Source: Stegostoma tigrinum (Eukaryota). From it: a DNA stretch of 64,000 bases. Position numbers and translations under genes: made by a program. The notes beneath the pieces were generated by a model that did not search any database, was not told where the DNA came from, and saw nothing but the letters and a program-made list of their open reading frames with translations. The stretch spans positions 56,902,864 to 56,966,863 of the forward strand of contig NC_081373.1 in assembly GCF_030684315.1 (NCBI RefSeq), read 5' to 3'. Below, piece after piece: positions 2,690-61,257 of this stretch (position 1 is the stretch's first letter; every line of letters starts with the position of its first letter).

Positions 2690-3240
2690 TACCCCAATCA
2701 AACCCTAACCTCCTGAAAGACCAACTCCAACACCCTCAACTAGCCCAGTCACCCTCTTAAATCCTGACACCACTGTCCCACCTTGCAATCTCAGTCTTTT
2801 CCCCACTCGCACCTCCAGAACAGGTACTCTGCAAACCAGCCTGTCAGGTACACTCAGTATCCCCACCCTCACTCAGGAGGGAAACCCACCCCCTACATTC
2901 AATCTCCCCCACCCCGACCGCCCCTCCCCCCAACACGCTCGAAACCACCCCAACACCCCCCCAAAATCTCAGAACACTCCCCCCACCTCGCGCCCAACAC
3001 TCTCGACCCCCACCGCACCCCGAGCCCCCCCACAATCTCGACCTCCACCTCACCCTGACTCCCCCAGCACACTCTGGAACCACCCACACTCTCAACCCCA
3101 CCTCACCCCGACCACCCCACAGTCTCAACTCCCCTCACACTCTCGACCCCGACACCCACCCCTCCCATTCTCACCCCACTCACCTCCACCTTCCCAGCCC
3201 ATCCCACCCACTCTTCCCCACCGTGCTCTCTCTCCTCACT
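2690..3240. repeat. C-rich degenerate tandem/low-complexity tract in pyrophosphatase intron 1 (G-rich on the transcribed strand)
   Basis: Repeated CACACTCTCGACCCC/CACCCCG-like units. Confidence 0.7.
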
Positions 3241-3243
3241 CAC

Positions 3244-3307
3244 TCAGGAACAGGCGATAGGTGCCGGTATGCTCCCGGCCACGCTCTTCCCTGCCATACC
3301 CCGCCAT
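3244..3307 (-). CDS. Inorganic pyrophosphatase (PPA1/PPA2 family), coding exon 1
   Basis: GCG ATG G Kozak context; MAGYGREERGREHTGTYRLFL + A|gtgagt; 64 nt; resembles the PPA N-terminus (EER...YRxF). Confidence 0.9.
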
Positions 3308-3530
3308 CGCTGCACAGACCCTGAACCCGCCTCCGCTACGTCAGTGACACACCCCTCCGAGTGCACCGTCCAGGCCACGTCACGGACACACCTCCGTACG
3401 GCCAAACGTCACGACGCCATGTCTTATACCCACCCCCCTATGCACTGCGTCCGCCGGCATCTCGCGCGTGCACCGTCATGACGTAACACGCAGTAACGGC
3501 CAAGTTGTTGGGGTTCTGGGTGCGGGAAAG
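3308..3530 (-). promoter_or_regulatory. CpG-rich 5'UTR/promoter of the pyrophosphatase gene, with several CRE/ATF half-sites
   Basis: High CpG density; repeated TGACG/CGTCA motifs (~3338, 3377, 3406, 3479). Confidence 0.7.
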
Positions 3531-3984
3531 TGTTTTATGGAAAGATGGTGACTTACTTGAGAGATGTAGTTAGAACATAGAACCATACAGCGCAGAACAG
3601 GCCCTTCAGCCCTCGATGTTGCGCCGAACTGTGAACTAATCTAAGCCCCTCCCCCTACATCATCATCCATATGCTTATCCAAGGACTGTTTAAATGCACC
3701 TAAGTTGGCTTGGGGATACGCAAGCAGAAGCTGACAGCCAGATGTGATACCTGTGAGAACTTCCTCAACTGGGATCGTGCGTTCATGTCACACTGCAGGT
3801 GACCCCACCACAATCTACACTCCAAACACACACACAGTTGTCTTGGCCTGTAGAAATAATCTGCGTGCGGTATGTTTGCAGACCAGCGTTACGATGAAGG
3901 GTTAATCAGCCGTGCCATAGTTTACATCTGTGTGTGGCGTGCAGCCCGGAGGTTGATGGAGAAAAGCTGCAATGCAAAAACAAA

Positions 3985-5150
3985 GGTGGAAAGGCAGGTT
4001 GACAGAGGGACACACGGTTTACAGAGAGTTATTGATAGGTTAAGTAAATGGGCAAGAGGTTGGGAAGGATATGGATGCACTGGAAAGGGTGCAGAGGAAA
4101 TTTACCAGGATGTTGCCTGGTATGGACGGCTACGAGGAAAGGCTGAGGGACTTGAGGCTGTTTTCGTTAGAGAGAAGAAGGTTAAGAGGTGACTTAATTG
4201 AGACATACAAGATGATCAGAGGATTAGGTACGGTGGACAGTGAGAGCCTTGTTCCTCAGGTGGTGATGGCTAGCTTTAAATTGAGGTTTGATAGATATAG
4301 GACAGAAGACAGAGGTAGGTTCTTCACTGAGAGAGTGTAAAGGCGTGGAATGCCCTGCCTGCAACAGTAGTAGACTCACCAACTTTAAGTAACACTAGTG
4401 AATAGTGCTTAAATAATAGGAAGGCAGAATACTGGGTCAATGGAAAGATTCTTGGTAGTGTGGATGTGCAGAGGGATCTTGGTGTCCATGTACATAGATC
4501 CCTGAAATTTGCCACCCAGGTTGATAGTGCTGTTAAGATGGTGTACGGTGTGTTAGGTTTTATTGGTAGAGGGATTGAGTTCCAAAGCCATGATGTCATG
4601 CTGCAACTTACAAAATGCTAGTGTGGCCATTCTTGGAATATTGTGTACAGCTCTGGTCGCACCATTATAGGAAGGATGTGGAAGCATTGGAAAACGTGCA
4701 GAGGAGATTTACCAGGATGTTGCCTGGTCTGAAGAGAAGATCTTATGAGGAAAGGCTGAGGAACTTAGGTCTGTTCTCATTGGATAGAAGAAGGCCAAGA
4801 GGGGATCTAATAGAGGCATATAAGATGATCAGAGGATTAGATAGGGTAGATAGTGGAGTCTTTTTCCTAGGATGATGACATCAGCTTGTACGAGGGGGCA
4901 TAGCTACAAATTGAGAGGTGATAGATTTAAGACAGATGTCAGAGGCAGGTTCTTTACTCAGAGAGTTGTAAGGGTGTGGAGTGCGCTACCTGCCAATGTA
5001 GTTAACTCAGCCACATTAGGGGCATTTAAACAGTCCTTGGATAAGCATATGGATGATGATGGGATAGTGTAAGGCTTAGATTAGTTCACAGATCGGCACA
5101 ACATCAAGGGCTGAAGGGCCTGTTCTGCGCTGTATTGTTTTATGTTCTAT
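3985..5150 (+). mobile_element. Two tandem CR1 LINE 3' fragments
   Basis: ORF pieces ALERVQRKFTRMLPG, LEYCVQLWSHHYRKD, RGRFFTQRVV; ATGTTCTAT tail. Confidence 0.9.
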
Positions 5151-5159
5151 AAATGTTAC

Positions 5160-7500
5160 AAGAGAATATGCCTTCCTATTCACCCTGGTCCATTTGTTCA
5201 TAATCTTATACACCCCTATCAATTTCCCCTCAACCTTTCTGCTTCAAGGAAAGCAACACTATACCATCCAGTATTTCGTCATAGCTCAGATACTCCAGGC
5301 AGCATCCTCGTTAATCTCCTCTGCACACTCTCAATGTGATCAGATCCTTCCTGTATGTGGTGATGGAATTGCATGTAGTTCTGTAACCAGCATTTTGAAC
5401 AGTTCTAGCACAACCTCAACCTGTATTCTGAACCTCAGCTAATAAGGTCAACTATCCCATATGCGTACATAATCACCTTATCTACCTGTCCTGCTACCTT
5501 CAGGGATCTGTCGACATGCACATCAAGGTCCTCTGATCTCCGAATCCTACTATACATAGTGTAACGCTGTTTCTTATTAGCCCTTGCCATGCGCATTTTT
5601 GGGTTGAATTCCATTTACTACTGCTCTGTCCAGCTGACCAGTCCGTTCTTTTGCAGTTTAAGCCTGTCCTTCTCATTATGTACCACTGTACCAATTTTCA
5701 TGTCGTCCTGAAAGTTATTGATCAGGTCCCCTTCATTTAAGTCCAAATTGTTAATTTACAACATTAACAGAAAGGCTTCCAGTCACAGAAACAATCCTCT
5801 CCAATCACTTCTACTTCTTGCCTCTTAGTCAATTTTGGATCTAATCTATCATTTTGCCTCAGATCTCAGGAACTGTTCCTGCTTTGACTAATCTGCCGTG
5901 AGGGTCCTTATTAAAGCGGTGCTAAATACCACATGGACCACATCAAATCCACTTCAATCCTTTTGGTTACTACCTCAAAAACTTTGATTAAACACAGTGG
6001 TCCCTTAAATTCATGCTGAGTATCCCTGATTAACCTATGTTTCTCAAAGTGCACATCTGTTGTGTAGCTTGGAATTCTTTCTAATAACATACTCATCACT
6101 GGGGTTAGACCGACTGGCCTGTGAATTCCAGTTCTATCCTTTCTTTTTAAAGAATAGGACTGTGTTAGCTGTCTTCCATTCCCCTTGCAGCTCATCTGTA
6201 ACCAGAAAGGATTTGAAGTTTACTGCCAGGTGCCCTGATATCTCTCCCTTTGCCTCCGTTAACAGCCTTGGTAGATCTCATCCAGGTCTGTGGATTTATC
6301 CACTTTTAAGGCTGCAAAAGCGGCTAGAATCTCATTTCTCTATGTTAATTTCTTCTGTTATGTCACAGGCCTCCAACCTGATGTCTGTATCTGCATTGTC
6401 CTTTTCTATTGAGAAGATCAATGCAGAATATTCAGTGAGGACTGTGCCCCTGCCTTCTGGATCCACACACACATTACTTTGATAGTCTCTTAATGAGCCC
6501 TACTCTTTCTCTTGTTATTCTCTTGCTCTCTATATGTCTAAACGGCCTCTTTGGGATCTGCTTTATTCCACCTACCAGTGCTTTCTCATGCACTTCCTTT
6601 GATCTCCTAATTTCCTTTTTAAGCTCCCCCAGGCACATTATGCACATCTAGGGACTCTGCCATCAGCTCTTTTTTTCTTAATCCTATCCTTATGTCACAT
6701 GTCTTCAAGATTTTCTGGTCGTGGACCCACCCTTTTTCTTAATGGGAGGAATTTGTCTTTTATACTCACTATTTCCTCCTTCTATGTCTTTAATATATTT
6801 TTATATGCAAATAGCTGCTGCCAGTCCACTTGGGCCAAAATATATCTTAGTAAAAATAGCTTTTTATTCCCGTCCCGTCCTATCCTTTTCCATAACCATC
6901 CTAAATCTAACAGAGCTGTGGTTACTATCTCCCAAGTCTTCTCCCTACTGATCTGCCTTCCATCTGCCTAGGCTTATTTCCAAATATTAGGTCCAGAACT
7001 GCCCCTACCGTCTTATGCTTCATGTACGGGTGAGTAAAGCACTCCTGGATGCATTTAAGAATTTTGTTGCCTCCCTACCTTGAGCACACAAACTGTCCCA
7101 GTTAACATTTGGATGGTTAAAATCTCCTATTATTATTGCCTTATTATTCTTACATTCCTGTGAAATTTGATTACATATTTGATCCTCTAGATCTCTCTGA
7201 TAGTTTGGGACCCTATAATAGATGTCAAACAATGTGTTTGCTTGTTTATAATTTTGAATTTTATCATATGGCCTCGTTTGATGATCGTTACTGCTATATG
7301 ATTCATTCCTTGATCAATGTTTCAAAATCCAAACCCCCATCCATCTCATTACCTCATCTGAATAACCTGTAAATAGTGATATTGAGCTGCCAAACCAGCC
7401 CATCTTTCAGCCAAGTCAAATAACAATCTAGGCCCTCATTTTGCCTATCTTATTCTCCAGGCATCTTGCATTAAAATATATTCCACTTAGCCTTGTTAAA
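5160..7500 (-). mobile_element. Old degenerate CR1 LINE (endonuclease to RT remnants)
   Basis: Minus-strand fragments IIIGDFNHPNVNWD (APE endonuclease) and HRPVGLTPV (RT). Confidence 0.8.
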
Positions 7501-25619: not shown

Positions 25620-27830
25620 ATAGAATCATACTGCATAGAAACAGGCCCTTTGGTCCAACCAGTCCATTCTGATCATAATCCCAAACTAAACTAGTCCCAT
25701 CTGCTTGAACTTGGCCCAAATCCCTCCCAAGATTTCTAATACATGTACTTATCTAAATGACTTTTAAACATTGTAACTGTACCGTCATTCACCACTTCCC
25801 CTAGAGGTTCATTCCAAACACAAACCACTTGGTTTAAAAAAATTATCCCTCATGTCTTTTTAAAACCTTTCTCCTTTCACCTTAAAAAAAATGCCTCCTT
25901 GTCTTGAAATCCACCACCCTAGGGAAAAGACCATTTACCTTATCTATACCCCTTATGATTTCATAAAACTCTATAAGCTCACCTCTCAACCTCCTACACT
26001 CCAATTAAAAAAAATCCTGGCCTATCCAACCTCTCCTTATAACTCAAACCCTCCATTCCCAGCCACATTGTGGTAAATTTCTTTAGAACCCTTTCCAGCC
26101 TAATGATATCCTTCCTATAACAGGGTGACCAGAATTCCAAAACAGACCTTACCAATATCCTATATAACCTCAACTTAATATCCCAACTCGTAAACTCAAA
26201 GGTCTGAGAATTGATGGCAGGCATCCTGAAACATCATCTTAACCCCCTATGTGTGATGCAAACTTCAACGAATTGTGTAATTGGACCACTAGGTCCCTCT
26301 GATCTACAATACTACCCAAGGCCCAACTTTTAATTGCATAAATCCTGCCCTTGTGTGTTTTACCAAAATGCAAAATATTACCTTTATTCAAATTAAACTC
26401 CATCTGCCGTTCCTCAGCCTGTTGACCCAATTGATCAAGATCTCTTTGTAATCATAGAAAACCTTCTTCACTGTCATCATCAATTTTGGTATCATCTGCA
26501 AACTTACTACCCATGCCTTCAATATTCTTATATAAATCATTTATATAAATAACTAATAAAAGTGGACTCAACATCGATCCCTTTGAAACATTGCTGGCCG
26601 CACGCCTCCAGTCCAAAAAACAACCCTTCGACATCATTCTGTTTCCTGCTGTTAAGCCAATTTTGTATCCAATTGGTGAACTCACCTTGAATCCCATGTG
26701 ACCTATACTAAATAGTCTACCATTCAGGACCTTGTCAAAGGCTTTACTAAAGTCCAAGTAACCAATATCTACCTCTCTGCCCTCAAATCTTCTTAGTTAC
26801 TTCCTCAAAAAAACTCAATCAAGTTTGTGAGACGTAATTTCCCTCTCACAAAACTATGCTGACTATTCCTAATCATGCCTTGCCTGTCCAAATGCATATA
26901 AATCCTATCTTTCAGAATCATCTCCAATAACTTACCCATCACCAAAGTCAGACTCACAGGTCTGTAGTACCCAGGCTTCTCATTACATCCCTTCTTAAAC
27001 AAACAACATTAGACACCCCAGTCATCCAGCATCTCACCTGTAGTTATAGGTGATACAAATATTTCTGGAAGAGGTCCCGCAATTTACTCTCTGACTTCCC
27101 ACAACATCTTGGGATACATTAGATAAAGTCCTGGAGATTTTTCCACCTTTATACTTTCTAAGATCTCCAGCACATCCTCTTCTGTAATGTGAACAGTTTT
27201 CAAAATATCTATACTTATTTCCCTGAGTTCTGTAGCCTCTGTTTCTTCCCCCACAGTAAAAACAGATGCAGAATATTAAAGCTTTTGTGCTCCTGAGATG
27301 CTGCTTGGCCTGCTGTGTTCATCCAGCCTCACATTTTGTTATCTCAGAATATTAATTTAATGTCTTTCCTAACTCCTGAGGTTCAATACGAAAATGACTA
27401 CTTTGATCCTTAGGGGGCCCTACTCTCTCTCTCTCTCTCGTTGCTCTCTTGTTCTTAATACACCTGTAGAATCTCTTTGGATGATCTTATTTGCCAAGGC
27501 TATCTCATATCCTTGCTTTGCCTTACTGATCTCCCTGTTAAGAATGCCTCTACGCTCTTTATACTGTTCAAGAGATTCATTTGAACACAGTTGTCTAAAT
27601 CTATGTATGATTCTCTTTTATTCCTGACTAAAAACTCAATATTTTTATTCAACCATTGTTCTCTTAATCTTACCAGCCTTACCTAACACTCTAATATAAT
27701 GACTCTGAACTTTCATTGTCACACTTTTGAATGCCTCCCACTTATCAGATATCCCTCTACCCATGAACAGTCTACTCCCAATCAACTTTTGAAAGTTCTT
27801 GTCTCATGCCATTAAAATTTGCTTTATTCC
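25620..27830 (-). mobile_element. CR1 LINE fragment (RT), degenerate
   Basis: PGYYRPVSLT, DFSKAFDKV and SKFADDTK in minus-strand ORFs. Confidence 0.9.
27280..27344 (+). mobile_element. 65-bp Penelope-like mini-insertion with 11-bp TSD
   Basis: TSD CAGAATATTAA at 27269-27279 and 27345-27355; insert matches the sequence just downstream of the hammerhead core in other copies. Confidence 0.85.
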
Positions 27831-36129: not shown

Positions 36130-36276
36130 CTTTCTCTCTAAGTCAAAGTTGTCTCTGTATTTATACAGCCAGTATGCCAGGTATTCAATAGGATCAACTG
36201 GTCGATGCTGTGCCACTTCTGCCAGACCCTCAGTCAAACAATCGCCCAAAACAATTCTCAGATAGTTTGAATCCAT
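36130..36276 (-). CDS. DYDC1: DPY30 domain-containing protein, first coding exon (Dpy-30 motif)
   Basis: [49 protein letters not shown]|gttagt; matches the DYDC motif LTxGLAEVAxxRPxDPIEYLAxW; adjacent to PRXL2A as in mammals. Confidence 0.93.
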
Positions 36277-40110: not shown

Positions 40111-40113
40111 TAC

Positions 40114-40225
40114 CCTGTCTCTGTTGCTATGGTCCTTTTCTCTCGCTGCAAGCGTCCGGTAACCAAGAAGAGCCGGAAGTGACGATTGGATGAGCAGCGA
40201 GCACCGCCCCCCGGGGGGGGCGGAG
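40114..40225. promoter_or_regulatory. Candidate bidirectional promoter and non-coding first exon of DYDC1
   Basis: Minus-strand donor CAGG|GTAAGT at 40114/40113; X-box-like GTTGCTATGG (40123-40132) and GGTAAC; ETS-CRE CCGGAAGTGACG (40173-40184); inverted CCAAT; GC boxes. Confidence 0.7.
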
Positions 40226-40226
40226 G

Positions 40227-41154
40227 CACACGGTGTGTGGGACCCCGGGACAGTGAGGCCGGGACGGGGTTACACAGTGTGCGTGGGGACCCCGGGACAG
40301 TGAGCCCGGGAGGGGGTTACACAGTGTGCGTGGGGACCCCGGGACACTGAGCCCGGGAGGGGGTTACACAGTGTGCGTGGGGACCCCGGGACAGTGAGGC
40401 CGGGACGGGGTTACACAGTGTGCGTGGGGACCCCGGGACAGTGAGCCCGGGAGGGGGTTACACAGTGTGCGTGGGGACCCCGGGACACTGAGCCCGGGAG
40501 GGGGTTACACAGTGTGCGTGGGGACCCCGGGACAGTGAGCCCGAGACGGGGTTACACAGTGTGCGTGGGGACCCCGGGACAGTGAGCCCGGGACAGGGTT
40601 ACACAGTGTGCGTGGGGACCCCGGGACAGTGAGCCCGGGACAGGGTTACACAGTGTGCGTGGGGACCCCGGGACAGTGAGCCCGGGACAGGGTTACACAG
40701 TGTGTGTGGGACCCCGGGACAGTGAGCCCGAGACGGGGTTACACAGTGTGCGTGGGGACCCCGGGACAGTGAGCCCGAGACGGGGTTACACAGTGTGCGT
40801 GGGGACCCCGGGACAGTGAGCCCGGGACAGGGTTACACAGTGTGTGTGGGGACCCCGGGACAGGGTTACACAGTGTGCGTGGGGACCCCGGGACACTGAG
40901 CCCGGGAGGGGGTTACACAGTGTGCGTGGGGACCCCGGGACAGTGAGCCCGGGAGGGGGTTACACAGTGTGTGTGGGGACCCCGGGACACTGAGCCCGGG
41001 AGGGGGTTACACAGTGTGCGTGGGGACCCCGGGACAGGGCTACATAGTGTGTTTGGGGACCCCGGGACAGTGAGCCCGGGAGGGGGTTACACAGTGTGTG
41101 GGGACCTCGGGACAGGGTTACACTGTGTGTGTGTGTTTGTGTGAGACCCCGGGA
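40227..41154. repeat. GC-rich 47-bp minisatellite, about 20 units
   Basis: Unit GGGGTTACACAGTGTGCGTGGGGACCCCGGGACAGTGAGCCCGGGAG, period 47, with a few shorter variants. Confidence 0.97.
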
Positions 41155-41615: not shown

Positions 41616-42354
41616 GTGAGTATCAGGAGAGGGGAGAGAAGAAACCCACATAGTTCGAGATTGAACCCGCATCTCTCTTTCTCTCCCCTTAGAGAGAGAG
41701 AGAGAAAGAAAGATTTTTGAGGGACAGAGAAGCAGAGCGTGGCGACAGTGAGGTCAACTGAATGTGGGAAGCAGACAGTAGGAGAGAAGAATTTCCAGAG
41801 CGAGACAGATAGTAGAACAGATGGGAATGGTCAGAGGATAACAGAGGCAGGTAAACAGGCATCGGAGATTACAATGGGAAGCAGTGGCTGAAAGAGGTGG
41901 CAAAATTAAGCTGGAGGGAGGGAGACAGCAGTAAAGAAGGGACATGAAGAGCCAGGGGAAAATAGGGAAAGGGAGATAGAGTGTAAAGGGAAGAAAAAAG
42001 GAGGGAGCGAGATGGTGGCAGTCTGACCGATAAATGAAGCCAAGGAATCAGGAAGTAAGAAAGGGAGGCAGACAGATGGAGGGAATGAAAGAGATGGGGA
42101 GAGAGAAGGAAAGGAAATGGGGGGCACAAAGACAGGGGAATAGGAGAAGCAAGGAAGACGCGCATATTAGCATGCCAGTGAGAGAGAGGGTGATAGAGAT
42201 CAGGTGACGGAAGGAGGGAGGCGGGCCATTTGAGTGAACTGAATGCTGCTGTTTTTAAGTTGCTTGTTTGACTGTGAATGGGATGTCTATCCTGCCGGTT
42301 ATTGCTGTTTGATCTTGTGTTCCAGGAAGTGTTGTGGAAGCTGAAGATTCTGAG

Positions 42355-42499
42355 ATGGGTTTGTGGCCGTTGGGCCTTGGAGCCTTGGGAGCAGCAATCA
42401 CCAGCGTGCTCCTGGCAAACACTGATCTCTTGCTGTCCCAAGCTGACACTGCAACACTCACATACCTGTCAGGGGCTTCACTGAGAACCTTGGATGAAG
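42355..42499 (+). CDS. PRXL2A: Selenoprotein U (peroxiredoxin-like 2A/FAM213A orthologue), first coding exon
   Basis: Acceptor ttccag at 42325; MGLWPLGLGALGAAITSVLLANTDLLLSQADTATLTYLSGASLRTLDE; ends at GC donor AG|GCAAGT, phase 1. Confidence 0.9.
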
Positions 42500-42639
42500 G
42501 CAAGTTTACAAGTCAAAGTATAAGAAACAACAGTGGTCTAATCACTGCCATGACTCATCTGGTATCTCTCTAAGTCTGGGTCAGAAGGTAATGGATACCA
42601 CCACCTCACCCTGCCTCTATCTAACCCAGGCAAAGACTT

Positions 42640-45090: not shown

Positions 45091-45182
45091 AGAAAAGGAG
45101 ATTTGAGGCAGCCGAGCTGTGGATGCAGACTGGTGCAGTCATCATGGCAGTGCGGAGACCCGGATGATTCTTGTGCCGAGAG
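45091..45182 (+). CDS. PRXL2A: Selenoprotein U exon with in-frame TGA (Sec) at 45165-45167, UxxC motif
   Basis: tctttctag|(E)KRRFEAAELWMQTGAVIMAVRRPG-U-FLCRE|gtactg; TGA aligns with the first Cys of mammalian RRPGCFLCRE. Confidence 0.95.
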
Positions 45183-53569: not shown

Positions 53570-53710
53570 GAGGCCAATGACATCTCCTCTCTGAAACCCC
53601 AGCTTGATGAGTTAGGGGTCCCTCTGTATGGAGTCGTCAAAGAAGATATCAATAATGAATTAAAGAGCTTCCAACCTTTTTTCAAAGGCGAGATTTTTCT
53701 AGATGAAGAG
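53570..53710 (+). CDS. PRXL2A: Selenoprotein U, coding exon 3
   Basis: ctgcag|EANDISSLKPQLDELGVPLYGVVKEDINNELKSFQPFFKGEIFLDEE|gtaggt; 141 nt. Confidence 0.95.
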
Positions 53711-54036: not shown

Positions 54037-54201
54037 AAACGCTTCTATGGACCAAACAAACGCACCATGGGACTCCTTGGCCTTTTCCGTCTGGGTGTTT
54101 GGAGGAATTTTTTGAGAGCCTGGCGAAAAGGATTCAGCGGGAATACAGACGGAGAAGGATTCATCCTTGGAGGAGTATTTGTTTTAGGAGCTGGAGATCA
54201 G
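54037..54201 (+). CDS. PRXL2A: Selenoprotein U, coding exon 4
   Basis: ctttag|KRFYGPNKRTMGLLGLFRLGVWRNFLRAWRKGFSGNTDGEGFILGGVFVLGAGDQ|gtcagg; 165 nt. Confidence 0.95.
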
Positions 54202-57693: not shown

Positions 57694-57801
57694 GGAGTCC
57701 TCCTAGAGCACCGTGAGAAGGAGTTCGGTGACGCTGTTGATATCCACTCTGTCCTTGAAGCAGCCAGGAAGGTCAGGCCTCCGAGAGTCACTGAAAAATA
57801 G
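57694..57801 (+). CDS. PRXL2A: Selenoprotein U, last coding exon
   Basis: cacag|GVLLEHREKEFGDAVDIHSVLEAARKVRPPRVTEK*; true stop TAG at 57799-57801. Confidence 0.93.
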   Translation, partial: GVLLEHREKEFGDAVDIHSVLEAARKVRPPRVTEK

Positions 57802-58159
57802 ACTGCCAGAAACTGAGAAATCAAAAGGAAATGCCACAGTGAAACTCCTGTTCAGTATCAAGTAATCACTGCACAGCGCTGGATCCCCAACCACTGCTCC
57901 ACTGATCCCTCTTCCTCTTCCCCCATATCCAGACTGTACTCCTGACTCCCTAGAATCCCACCCAAATCCTGCTCCCTACGTGAACCCTCCCACTCTGCAT
58001 TCAAATCCTGCCTTTCTCTTCCTGAACCACACCTCTCTGCTCCCCCACCCCACTCCAGAACCCTGCCTCCCTCCCCCTGAACCATACCTCTCTGCCCCCA
58101 AACCTACCTCACTAGCCCCTAGAACTCTACCCTCTCTTTCCTGGGGCTGCTCTGTGTTG

Positions 58160-58235
58160 CTGACCTGCACTGTATTAATGAGGGTCTGATCCTAAAGCTA
58201 TTGGCTCATGGCCTGATATTTACAGAGTTGGTCAG
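58160..58235 (+). promoter_or_regulatory. SECIS element in the SelU 3'UTR
   Basis: ATGA (58178-58181), 12 nt, AAA (58194-58196), TGAT (58214-58217); helix II GGTC-TGA-CC pairs with GG-TCA-GGCC; helix I CTGTA/TACAG and CTGACC/GGTCAG. Confidence 0.88.
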
Positions 58236-58293
58236 GAGTGAAATTCTGACATGGAATTGAAGTGGAAACTGTTTGTAACCTGAACCTAATCAC

Positions 58294-58299
58294 AATAAA
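58294..58299 (+). terminator. Polyadenylation signal AATAAA for SelU
   Basis: AATAAA about 60 nt after the SECIS. Confidence 0.7.
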
Positions 58300-61257
58300 A
58301 GAATACAAGACAATGATATTGCTATTAATTTCACCTTAATCTCACTTCCCAGCTATCGATTCTTTTCAAATTCTAAACAGCCCTCCATCTACAGATTAAC
58401 CCCCAGTGTTGAAACTGTTGGGGAACCACTGGGGCACTGTGCCAGAACATCCTGAATGCCCCATGCTTGAAAGAGTATTCACTGGTCAGTGGCAGCTTTT
58501 TTTATACTTAAGTGGGATGTAAGCATCAGTGACAAGGCTCATCCCTAAATGCTGTGGACCTGAGTGGCTCACGTGGCTGAGGGTCTGGAGTTGTATGTAG
58601 ACCAAACCGGATAAGGACAGCAGATTTCCTCCCCTAAAGAGCATTAGTGAAACAGGAAAGTTTTGAACAGTAATCGATGATAACTGTCATGGCCACTGTT
58701 ACTGAGACTAGCTTTTTAGTTAGGTGTTCATTAATTCAAGTTCCACTTGAGGTGGGATTCGAGTCTGTGAACTCGTGGACATTACCGCTACACCTTAGCT
58801 CCTTTGGGAATGGTGTTCCTGCTGGGGTGTTCTCTACACATTGCCCTATTCTGGGAATGGAGCATCTCCTGGACAATGCCATGTGCTGGGAATAATGTTT
58901 GTGAAGGTAATCACTGTGTGCTGAGAACCTTTACTGTCATTTAGTCTGACCTGTAGGTTTGATGTTCTATTTGCAAACTTGGACCACATTATCCATTCAA
59001 ATTACTCTTCACTTATCACTTGCCAAACACTATGTACTCAGCTCTAAGAGGGGCCAGCACTGTGTAACTATGATCATTTAGATTAACTGCAGCAAAGCTC
59101 CATAAAGTACTGTGGAATATTTTTGGCAGGTGCTTGGGTGAGTACAATTGAAACCACTTGTGCAATCTTGTAAACAGAGGTATCGAGTACCATAGCAAAG
59201 AAGTTCTGTTCAATCTTTAGAAACACTGGTTCAACCTGAGCTGGTGGAATGGGTCCAGCTCTGGGTGATACATTTCAGGAAAAGTGAGAACTCATCAGAG
59301 AGGGATGTGGATAAGATTCATGAGAACGGTCTCCAGGGATGAGGCGCTTGTTTACTTGGATAGGTTGGAAAAGTTGGGACTGTTAACTGTCAAATGAAAT
59401 TTGAGCCAAATGCAATGCCAAACTTAAATTCTTTGAATTTAAAAATAAGACATTTTTGCAGGGCTCAACTGCAGCATTGCAGACTGTTGATATTCCCAAC
59501 CCCACACAGCCTGTGGTTCAAATGTGTGCCAAGGTGCTGCCAACATGCTGGAGAGGAGACACTAGTGCCTCCCTGCAGGGCAATGCCAAAGTTTCTCTTC
59601 CCAAGAAAAGTGCCTCCTGTCCCCAATGAGGCAGCTTGGATGGAGATTGCAGGTGAGGCTAATAGGGAAAAAGATCACTCCCAGATCCTGGGTGCGTGTG
59701 CTGGAAAAGGCGCAGCACGCTGCCAGAGGGCATCATCCACATAGTTGGGATAAGCCTAATGATAATGGATTAAAGAGGACAGCCTTCACAAAATACATCT
59801 GCCCTCAGAGGCCCACTGAGCCAGAGGGGAAAAAAACCTAGGAAAATAACCAGTAATACTTTGGAAATGTTTGCACTGAGCACACAAAGCTCCACTTTGA
59901 AATGTACAAGACAGGACAAAAGCTTTACTGTCTTGTTCTTCTCTGTTAAATCCCAGTGATGAAGTAAACAATGAGGGAATGATGGCTGAAACTCTGGCCC
60001 AGCCACAGAATCTGATTCTACCCCAAACTTTAGGAAGGATGTGAGGAAATCAAAGAATAAAAATGACTACAAGGATGAGGAACTTGGGCATGTGGATTAT
60101 TTGGAGAAGTTGAGGCTATTTTCCTTGGAGAAGAGTGTGTGAGGAGGTTTGTTCAAAATTAGGAGTGATGTGGAGACATGATAGGGAGAAATGTTCCCAT
60201 AGGTGAAGGTGTCAAAAACTAGTTGCACAGGTTGGCAAAATAGTGACATGAGAAATATTGTTTAGAATAAAGAGCGTTTAGGACATCGAATACAGTATCT
60301 GAGAGTGTGGTGCAGGCAGGTACAATCAGGGCTTATAGAAGGATTGCATTAGCAATCAAGCAGGGGTAAACCAAAACATATTTGATGGTTTTAGAGAAAA
60401 GGATTGACTCGCTTTAGCATATATTGAGAGCAGAAAATGCTGCAGAACTCGTTTCTGACAGCATACGTGGAGAGAAACCAAGGCAACATTTCGAGTCTAA
60501 TGACTGTTTATGAAAACTGAAGAAAGGGGTGCAAAAGTGATGGAGATCATGCTGAGGAAAGCAAGTCGTCCACGGCCAAGATGGCTACCACTTGACGGTG
60601 CAGATGGCAACAATGACGTGACAGACCCTTCTGCCAGACCCCCTGCCTCCTATCCCTGCCTCTGCTCTGACCATTGCCCTACCCCTCCACCTCCCCACTC
60701 AATTCTCCCCTGGATACTGCTACCACTTTGAGCTCTTTCTGAGCATTTTACAGAATTTTTGCCACCCTGCAGCACTGGTAGTAAATCAACAGGCAGTCTT
60801 CACACTGTTGGAAATGAGAAGGAGCAAGTGAAACATGAAGTTCAAAAAAAGGTGAGGGGAGATTAGCGATCAGAGGTGTCACATAACAAAAGGAGTGGGA
60901 ATGTTTGTAGAGAAGACTTGGAATAGATCCAGAGAAGGAACAGAATGAAACTGAATTCCGATTGAAAGCAAAACAATGAAAAACTGTAAATTACAGACAC
61001 TGCGGATGGGAGGAGGCTGAAGTATCACAATGCAGGAAAGTGTTCATAGTTTGATGTTGTTTAATTGTCCTGACGCACTTAAACAGAAAATAAACCACTG
61101 TTTCTGCAGCTTATACTGGGCTTTGCTGGAACATTGCAGCAAATGCAGGACAGAAACATAAGCCTGGGAATTCAGGATTTCCAGACAGCCAGCACCAATA
61201 GCCTTTTGCTGTTGCTAGAACCACAATTTCAGAAGCCACAGTGGGCTCTGAAAGCCT

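Follow-up and report, generated by a model that had tools for sequence, protein, structure and literature searches.

The locus considered here raises the question of whether a TGA triplet lying inside an otherwise open coding frame ends translation, is an error, or encodes selenocysteine (Sec). It lies in a 64,000-nucleotide stretch of Stegostoma tigrinum DNA, the whole of which we refer to as the window, and a first-pass annotation made from the letters without database searches placed it at the catalytic site of the selenocysteine form of PRXL2A (selenoprotein U). Our analysis leads to the same reading, and we hold with high confidence that the gene is an intact SELENOU1 (PRXL2A) in its ancestral selenoprotein form, this confidence applying jointly to the gene and to the whole explanation developed below, Sec insertion included.

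Structure and identity of the gene

Five coding exons on the forward (+) strand of the window join in phase to give 217 codons and 216 residues, and the only stops in the joined frame are at codon 74 (TGA) and codon 217 (TAG). Coding exon 1 (42355-42499, 145 nt) opens with the ATG at 42355 and encodes a hydrophobic N-terminal leader or anchor, with a Kyte-Doolittle maximum of 1.76 over residues 3-21. Coding exon 2 (45091-45182, 92 nt) is flanked by a pyrimidine tract and AG on its 5' side and by a GT donor on its 3' side that matches five of nine consensus positions; its in-frame translation contains AVRRPG-TGA-FLCRE, such that the TGA (45165-45167) occupies the first position of a U74-F-L-C77 redox motif. 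Coding exons 3 (53570-53710) and 4 (54037-54201) encode the first and second parts of an AhpC-TSA_2 domain, and the coding part of the last exon (57694-57801) ends with the TAG. The exon lengths of 145, 92, 141, 165, and 105 nt are those of the published Hemiscyllium ocellatum model, reflecting a conserved exon structure, and a 92-nt exon 2 is found in four of the nine published elasmobranch models. No second lesion, whether frameshift, extra stop, or lost splice site, is present in the five exons.

The family assignment is supported by several comparisons. A search with exon 4 gave whale shark PRXL2A (98% identity) and Chiloscyllium punctatum PRXL2A (95%) as the best named matches, over the 141 residues following the Sec site the identity to PRXL2A of the whale shark (Rhincodon typus) is 94%, and identity to named non-shark PRXL2A proteins is 58-71%, with the full-length ones aligning on both sides of the TGA. 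Exons 3 and 4 score 31.8 and 28.1 bits respectively against Pfam PF13911 (AhpC-TSA_2, Prx-like2; cut-off 27), and the RRPG-(U/C)-x-x-C motif of the SELENOU1/PRXL2A family is present. The first-pass annotation had described five exons, 216 codons, and RRPG-TGA-FLC with U74 and C77, all of which we recover on joining the exons in phase; it was also right about the PRXL2A/selenoprotein U identity, the strong conservation beyond the TGA, and the cartilaginous-fish origin, the nearest named PRXL2A sequences being those of whale shark and bamboo shark, which makes a carpet shark close to the whale shark the most likely source.

The likely start of exon 1 is 42326, following an AG. The PRXL2A proteins of therians, frogs, and turtles (FAM213A, PAMM, adiporedoxin) share about 62-69% full-length identity with the window protein, the position of the motif, and a hydrophobic N-terminus, but have CFLC in place of UFLC and often carry 10-16 more N-terminal residues for which exon 1 here has no ATG. 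We found no in-frame upstream ATG for such a tetrapod-like extension in positions 42327-42354, and any such extension may start from an ATG in an upstream exon. We also note a good donor site at 41616 (+) that may close a non-coding first exon of PRXL2A.

Intron 1 is a GC-AG intron with a non-canonical donor at 42500-42505 (+). This GC donor matches nine of nine consensus positions compared with five of nine for the next GT, 12 nt downstream, and it is supported because the open reading frame (ORF) of a spliced relative crosses the exon 1/2 junction without insertion; its weaker consensus and this uninterrupted junction led us to discard the GT donor at 42512. Five published genewise models from sharks and rays extend 'GK' into intron 1, and the exonerate model of H. 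ocellatum ends at 145 nt, as here, which suggests conservation of the GC donor among elasmobranchs and a slight error in those five genewise models.

Selenocysteine in published SELENOU1 models

The closest published comparisons are the SELENOU1 models of H. ocellatum, Chiloscyllium plagiosum, and C. punctatum (PMC13134290), all of which have in common with the window gene the motif RRPGUFLCREE and exons of 141, 165, and 105 nt. The 92-nt exon 2 is shared with H. ocellatum and C. plagiosum, and in H. ocellatum the agreement extends to the 145-nt first exon and the total of 216 residues. The departures are scattered residue changes, judged by eye, in all three models, an overrun of the GC donor by 12 nt in C. 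plagiosum, and a missing exon 1 in C. punctatum. By eye, none of the ten published chondrichthyan SELENOU1 models is identical to the window protein. The whale shark PRXL2A database entry is labeled 'partial', and both it and the published model are without exons 1-2, such that the Sec site is not visible in either.

Tico et al. (bioRxiv 10.1101/2025.05.29.656587) describe an analysis of nine NCBI chondrichthyan genomes, with Sec confined to the SELENOU1 branch and four Sec-to-Cys conversions, in Theria, Anura, Testudines, and parrots. In the supplement to Tico et al. 2026 (PMC13134290), SELENOU1 is listed with selenocysteine in eight of those nine and in Callorhinchus milii, and thus in nine of ten chondrichthyans, with RRPGU in the Selenoprofiles models; the tenth, whale shark, is given as 'unaligned' because exons 1-2 are missing. 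The same supplement has U at the site in three independently assembled species of the same order, selenocysteine in six of the seven lamprey SELENOU1 entries examined (the other being pseudo), and U in three amphioxus species and sea urchin. The examined part of this supplement contains no match to 'Stegostoma'. Mariotti et al. 2012 (PMC3316567) count SelU1 as one of 28 selenoproteins of the ancestral vertebrate, Sec SelU is reported from invertebrates (Jiang et al. 2012, PMC3473315), and a cDNA of the turkey ortholog is reported to contain both the UGA and a SECIS (PMC4466519).

The Sec state of SELENOU1 in sharks and rays is ordinary and already published, and is not new; as the first-pass annotation recognized, the family is known. 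The window gene is one more shark for the published list and carries little biological weight, although there is a small annotation value in a complete model with the UGA, the GC-AG intron 1, the SECIS candidate, and the poly(A) signal, where the Sec exon is missing from the whale shark model. The earlier proposal that Sec is ancestral in jawed vertebrates is supported, but it was already in print and understates the matter, with lampreys, amphioxus, and sea urchin having it too. Similarly, a division into UxxC in fishes and birds and CxxC in mammals holds for Cys in therians but is too simple, Cys also being found in frogs, turtles, and parrots. Cys in related sharks, named at the outset as one observation that would count against Sec, is not seen in these models.

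Database proteins and the alternatives to selenocysteine

Database searches listed 124 proteins, with one listing containing the best 120 of 422, and our analysis covers the 92 that are named, the other 32 being left out. Among therians, frogs, and turtles, the Cys lineages, 53 of 59 named homologs have an intact G-C-x-x-C; in the Sec lineages (sharks, ray-finned fishes, birds, squamates, and tuatara) the site is broken or missing in 28 of 33. None of the 92 contains U, and the TGA falls opposite the leading Cys of CFLC in the Cys lineages, and opposite U in the shark and ray models. A break exactly at the site in entries from Sec lineages is the usual sign of a skipped UGA. Five of the 33 Sec-lineage entries have C at this position, four of them cyprinid and one from a grouse (P0059, P0068, P0084, P0094, and P0102), and these would reflect either replacement of U by C in the records or Cys forms that have gone unreported.

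Both shark database entries that were found, from whale shark and C. punctatum, are wrong at the Sec site. In the C. punctatum model exon 2 is translated in a frame shifted by one base, with D-D across the site, and there only TGA or CGA is possible, such that a Cys codon is ruled out. A relative is represented by two ORFs, one of 73 residues that stops at RRPG and one of 141 residues that begins just after the site; the two agree in contig count and length, and so probably derive from one transcript. We note that misannotation of selenoprotein genes in general is the topic of PMC12822975.

Gene callers evidently follow the TGA as a true nonsense codon, leaving whale shark 'partial', C. punctatum mis-framed, and one relative split into two ORFs, and if they were correct then the window would contain a recent pseudogene or a gene for a 73-residue peptide only. 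This is extremely improbable given that there is no other lesion across 216 codons, that the 141 residues beyond the site are so similar to those of whale shark, that U is also modelled in nine of ten chondrichthyans and in lampreys (PMC13134290), and that a SECIS-like element is present in the UTR. We attach just as little credence to a sequencing or assembly error in a Cys codon. A single base distinguishes TGA from TGC and TGT, and tetrapods are reported to have converted Sec to Cys independently at least four times, but the three independently assembled species of the same order all have U (PMC13134290), a Cys codon is incompatible with the mis-framed C. punctatum model, and the SECIS-like element is retained.

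A further set of models has the UGA bypassed, either through insertion of Cys, Trp, or Arg in ordinary read-through, or by splicing out of the end of exon 2. Several database models omit 6 to 11 residues at the Sec site, the exon 2 donor is a poor match to the consensus, and the hairpin predicted after the UGA (see below) is of a kind that can raise generic read-through, as reported for SELENON (PMC6844570). However, the skipped forms lose the entire catalytic motif and come mainly from Sec lineages, which points to annotation artefacts, and generic read-through does not account for the SECIS. We therefore regard bypass as very improbable, and the reading of the TGA as a Sec codon is, from these sequence comparisons, almost certainly right.

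A SECIS candidate in the 3'UTR

The 3'UTR contains a SECIS candidate at 58160-58236 (+), on the same strand as the gene and just upstream of a predicted poly(A) signal, the earliest AATAAA motif after the stop (58294-58299, +). It has a canonical core and two helices, with AUGA (58178-58181) located 377 nt after the stop and followed by 12 nt, AAA (58194-58196), and then UGAU on the opposite arm, with its GA at 58215-58216. An 88-nt region including these elements folds as one long hairpin of -30.3 kcal/mol (z -3.49), and none of 200 shuffles is equally stable. The minimum free energy structure is type I-like with a 10-nt apical loop, and a type II form is also admissible.

At the Rfam gathering level there is no SECIS match anywhere in the 64-kb window. 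A relaxed search of 57700-58500 gave five matches, of which the top two, SECIS_1 (21.8 bits, E 0.17, gathering score 35) and SECIS_5 (18.5 bits, cut-off 50), both lie at the candidate and span the full model, and both are sub-threshold. Scanning both strands of the 64 kb for the core pattern gave 280 matches, and the single one that passes a stem filter is the SECIS candidate, although the filter was chosen after the candidate was known and looser settings let through 4 to 38 matches; the filter was passed by 0/2000 UTR shuffles. The full-hairpin energy of the candidate is the lowest among all 280 matches. On the strength of its sequence and predicted fold we take 58160-58236 to be a real SECIS despite the sub-threshold Rfam score, and the downstream SECIS of the first-pass annotation stands with respect to its core and stable hairpin while falling short of the gathering score.

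A candidate hairpin following the UGA

Folding of the spliced mRNA predicts a 9-bp hairpin beginning 10 nt after the UGA. The first part of its 5' arm is at 45178-45182 (+), at the end of exon 2, and the arm continues across the exon 2/3 junction, with the rest of the candidate hairpin at 53570-53591; because the 5' arm is split between the two exons, the hairpin could form only in correctly spliced mRNA. The predicted pair probability is 0.93-0.94 in eight of the nine pairs. Synonymous recodings are as stable in 63/5000 cases with uniform codon use and 105/5000 with CDS-based codon use (about 1-2%), and 7 of 188 CDS windows score as low as the hairpin, six of these being in one GC-rich 5' stretch. 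The raw hairpin energy is unremarkable, ranking 43 of 201 CDS windows.

The comparative data are similarly mixed. Between C. punctatum, read in its shifted frame, and the window, changed codons number 0/6 in the stem, 2/3 in the loop, and 7/35 in flanking sequence, a comparison with one relative that is not significant. The amino acids encoded by the 3' arm are conserved in 31/31 Sec-lineage sequences, 12/12 from turtles, 27/29 from therians, and 8/18 from frogs, where the frog sequences are not independent of each other, and protein-level conservation under the hairpin gives no clean split between Sec and Cys lineages.

Elements following a UGA have been described for SELENON and SELENOT (PMC6844570, PMC8704476), and the Sec redefinition element (SRE) of SELENON is, like the hairpin here, a coding-region stem-loop located soon after the UGA-Sec codon; the hairpin here, with 9 bp, a 10-nt spacer, and an arm that spans an exon junction, is a weak candidate. 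Literature searches, in which the original SRE paper was not covered, returned no report of an SRE in SELENOU. That the hairpin is a Sec redefinition element assembled by splicing, slowing termination and favoring Sec insertion, is a tentative idea that we consider unlikely. If it were true, the element would be kept in Sec lineages and decayed in the four Cys lineages, providing a natural test with four independent losses.

Proposed recoding, product, and mRNA fate

In the mechanism that we propose, a ribosome translating the spliced mRNA would reach the UGA at codon 74, and the SECIS in the 3'UTR, about 800 nt downstream, would act through SECISBP2 and eEFSec bearing Sec-tRNA to direct insertion of selenocysteine. 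This pathway of recoding through SECIS, SECISBP2, and eEFSec is an established one (PMC8704476). The expected product has 216 residues and a thioredoxin fold, a hydrophobic leader or anchor at its N-terminus, and U-F-L-C at the start of a helix. The structural view comes from a model of the turtle ortholog rather than the shark protein (66-sequence alignment, mean pLDDT 70.8), in which an N-terminal helix is predicted at 11-36 and the motif is at the start of the helix following a core strand. The modelled fold is thioredoxin/peroxiredoxin-like, with human prostamide/prostaglandin F synthase as the closest structure (E 1.9e-9) and thiol-disulfide oxidoreductases and peroxiredoxins as the next matches. 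That synthase, PRXL2B (SELENOU3), has the same fold and motif position and is the only solved relative by sequence, but it is a paralog with 27-29% identity to the turtle model, and vertebrates are without a Sec form of it.

The Cys form in mouse is reported to be an ER membrane protein that acts upstream of protein disulfide isomerase (PDI) in a CXXC-dependent manner (PMC4632174), and also to be secreted by way of residues 1-32 (PMC12267542). By analogy with this mouse adiporedoxin, the shark protein would most likely be located in the ER membrane or the secretory path, where a U74-C77 selenenyl-sulfide cycle could pass oxidising equivalents from peroxide to PDI, with Sec74 presumably the attacking residue and Cys77 the resolving one.

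At low selenium some ribosomes would be expected to halt at codon 74, and the mRNA may then be degraded. The UGA is upstream of all three later junctions, at distances of 15, 156, and 321 nt, and the earlier remark that junctions lie more than 50 nt downstream is borne out by the second and third. Selenium-dependent nonsense-mediated decay (NMD) of the shark PRXL2A mRNA is plausible, but the 50-nt rule discriminates little because most Sec codons are upstream of junctions and outcomes vary; GPX1 is described as a strong NMD target, and GPX4 mRNA as not selenium-dependent (PMC8704476). In selenium-deficient chickens, SELENOU mRNA is said, at second hand, to drop in six tissues, testis and brain being exceptions (PMC5981252), and SELENOU protein is reported to be reduced in the pancreas (PMC9516478).

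Genomic neighborhood

A coding exon with a Dpy-30 motif (36130-36276, minus strand, E 9.4e-15) that begins at an ATG belongs to a DYDC-type gene arranged head to head with PRXL2A, and the first exon of that gene may run to a strong donor on the minus strand at 40113. A seal entry (P0054) has fused Dpy-30 and PRXL2A domains, which suggests that the DYDC/PRXL2A neighborhood is the same in mammals, and we presume the two genes to be syntenic in human. A CpG-rich stretch at 40130-41115 (observed/expected 0.64) may be a shared promoter; within it is a GC-rich tandem array of a 47-nt unit with at least 13 copies at 96% identity.

The Pfam scan covered 175 of the 178 stop-to-stop frames of at least 75 codons, the three in or beside the tandem repeat being left out, and its matches are confined to retroelement remnants, the Dpy-30 exon, PRXL2A exon 4, and one weak TetR_C_13 match that falls below the cut-off and was taken as chance. 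The remnants are LINE-type, at 399-1448, 7023-7313, and 26455-26796, all on the minus strand, with reverse transcriptase and endonuclease matches. A second CpG-rich stretch, at 3001-4000 (observed/expected 0.69), contains C-rich tandem repeats and is possibly another promoter.
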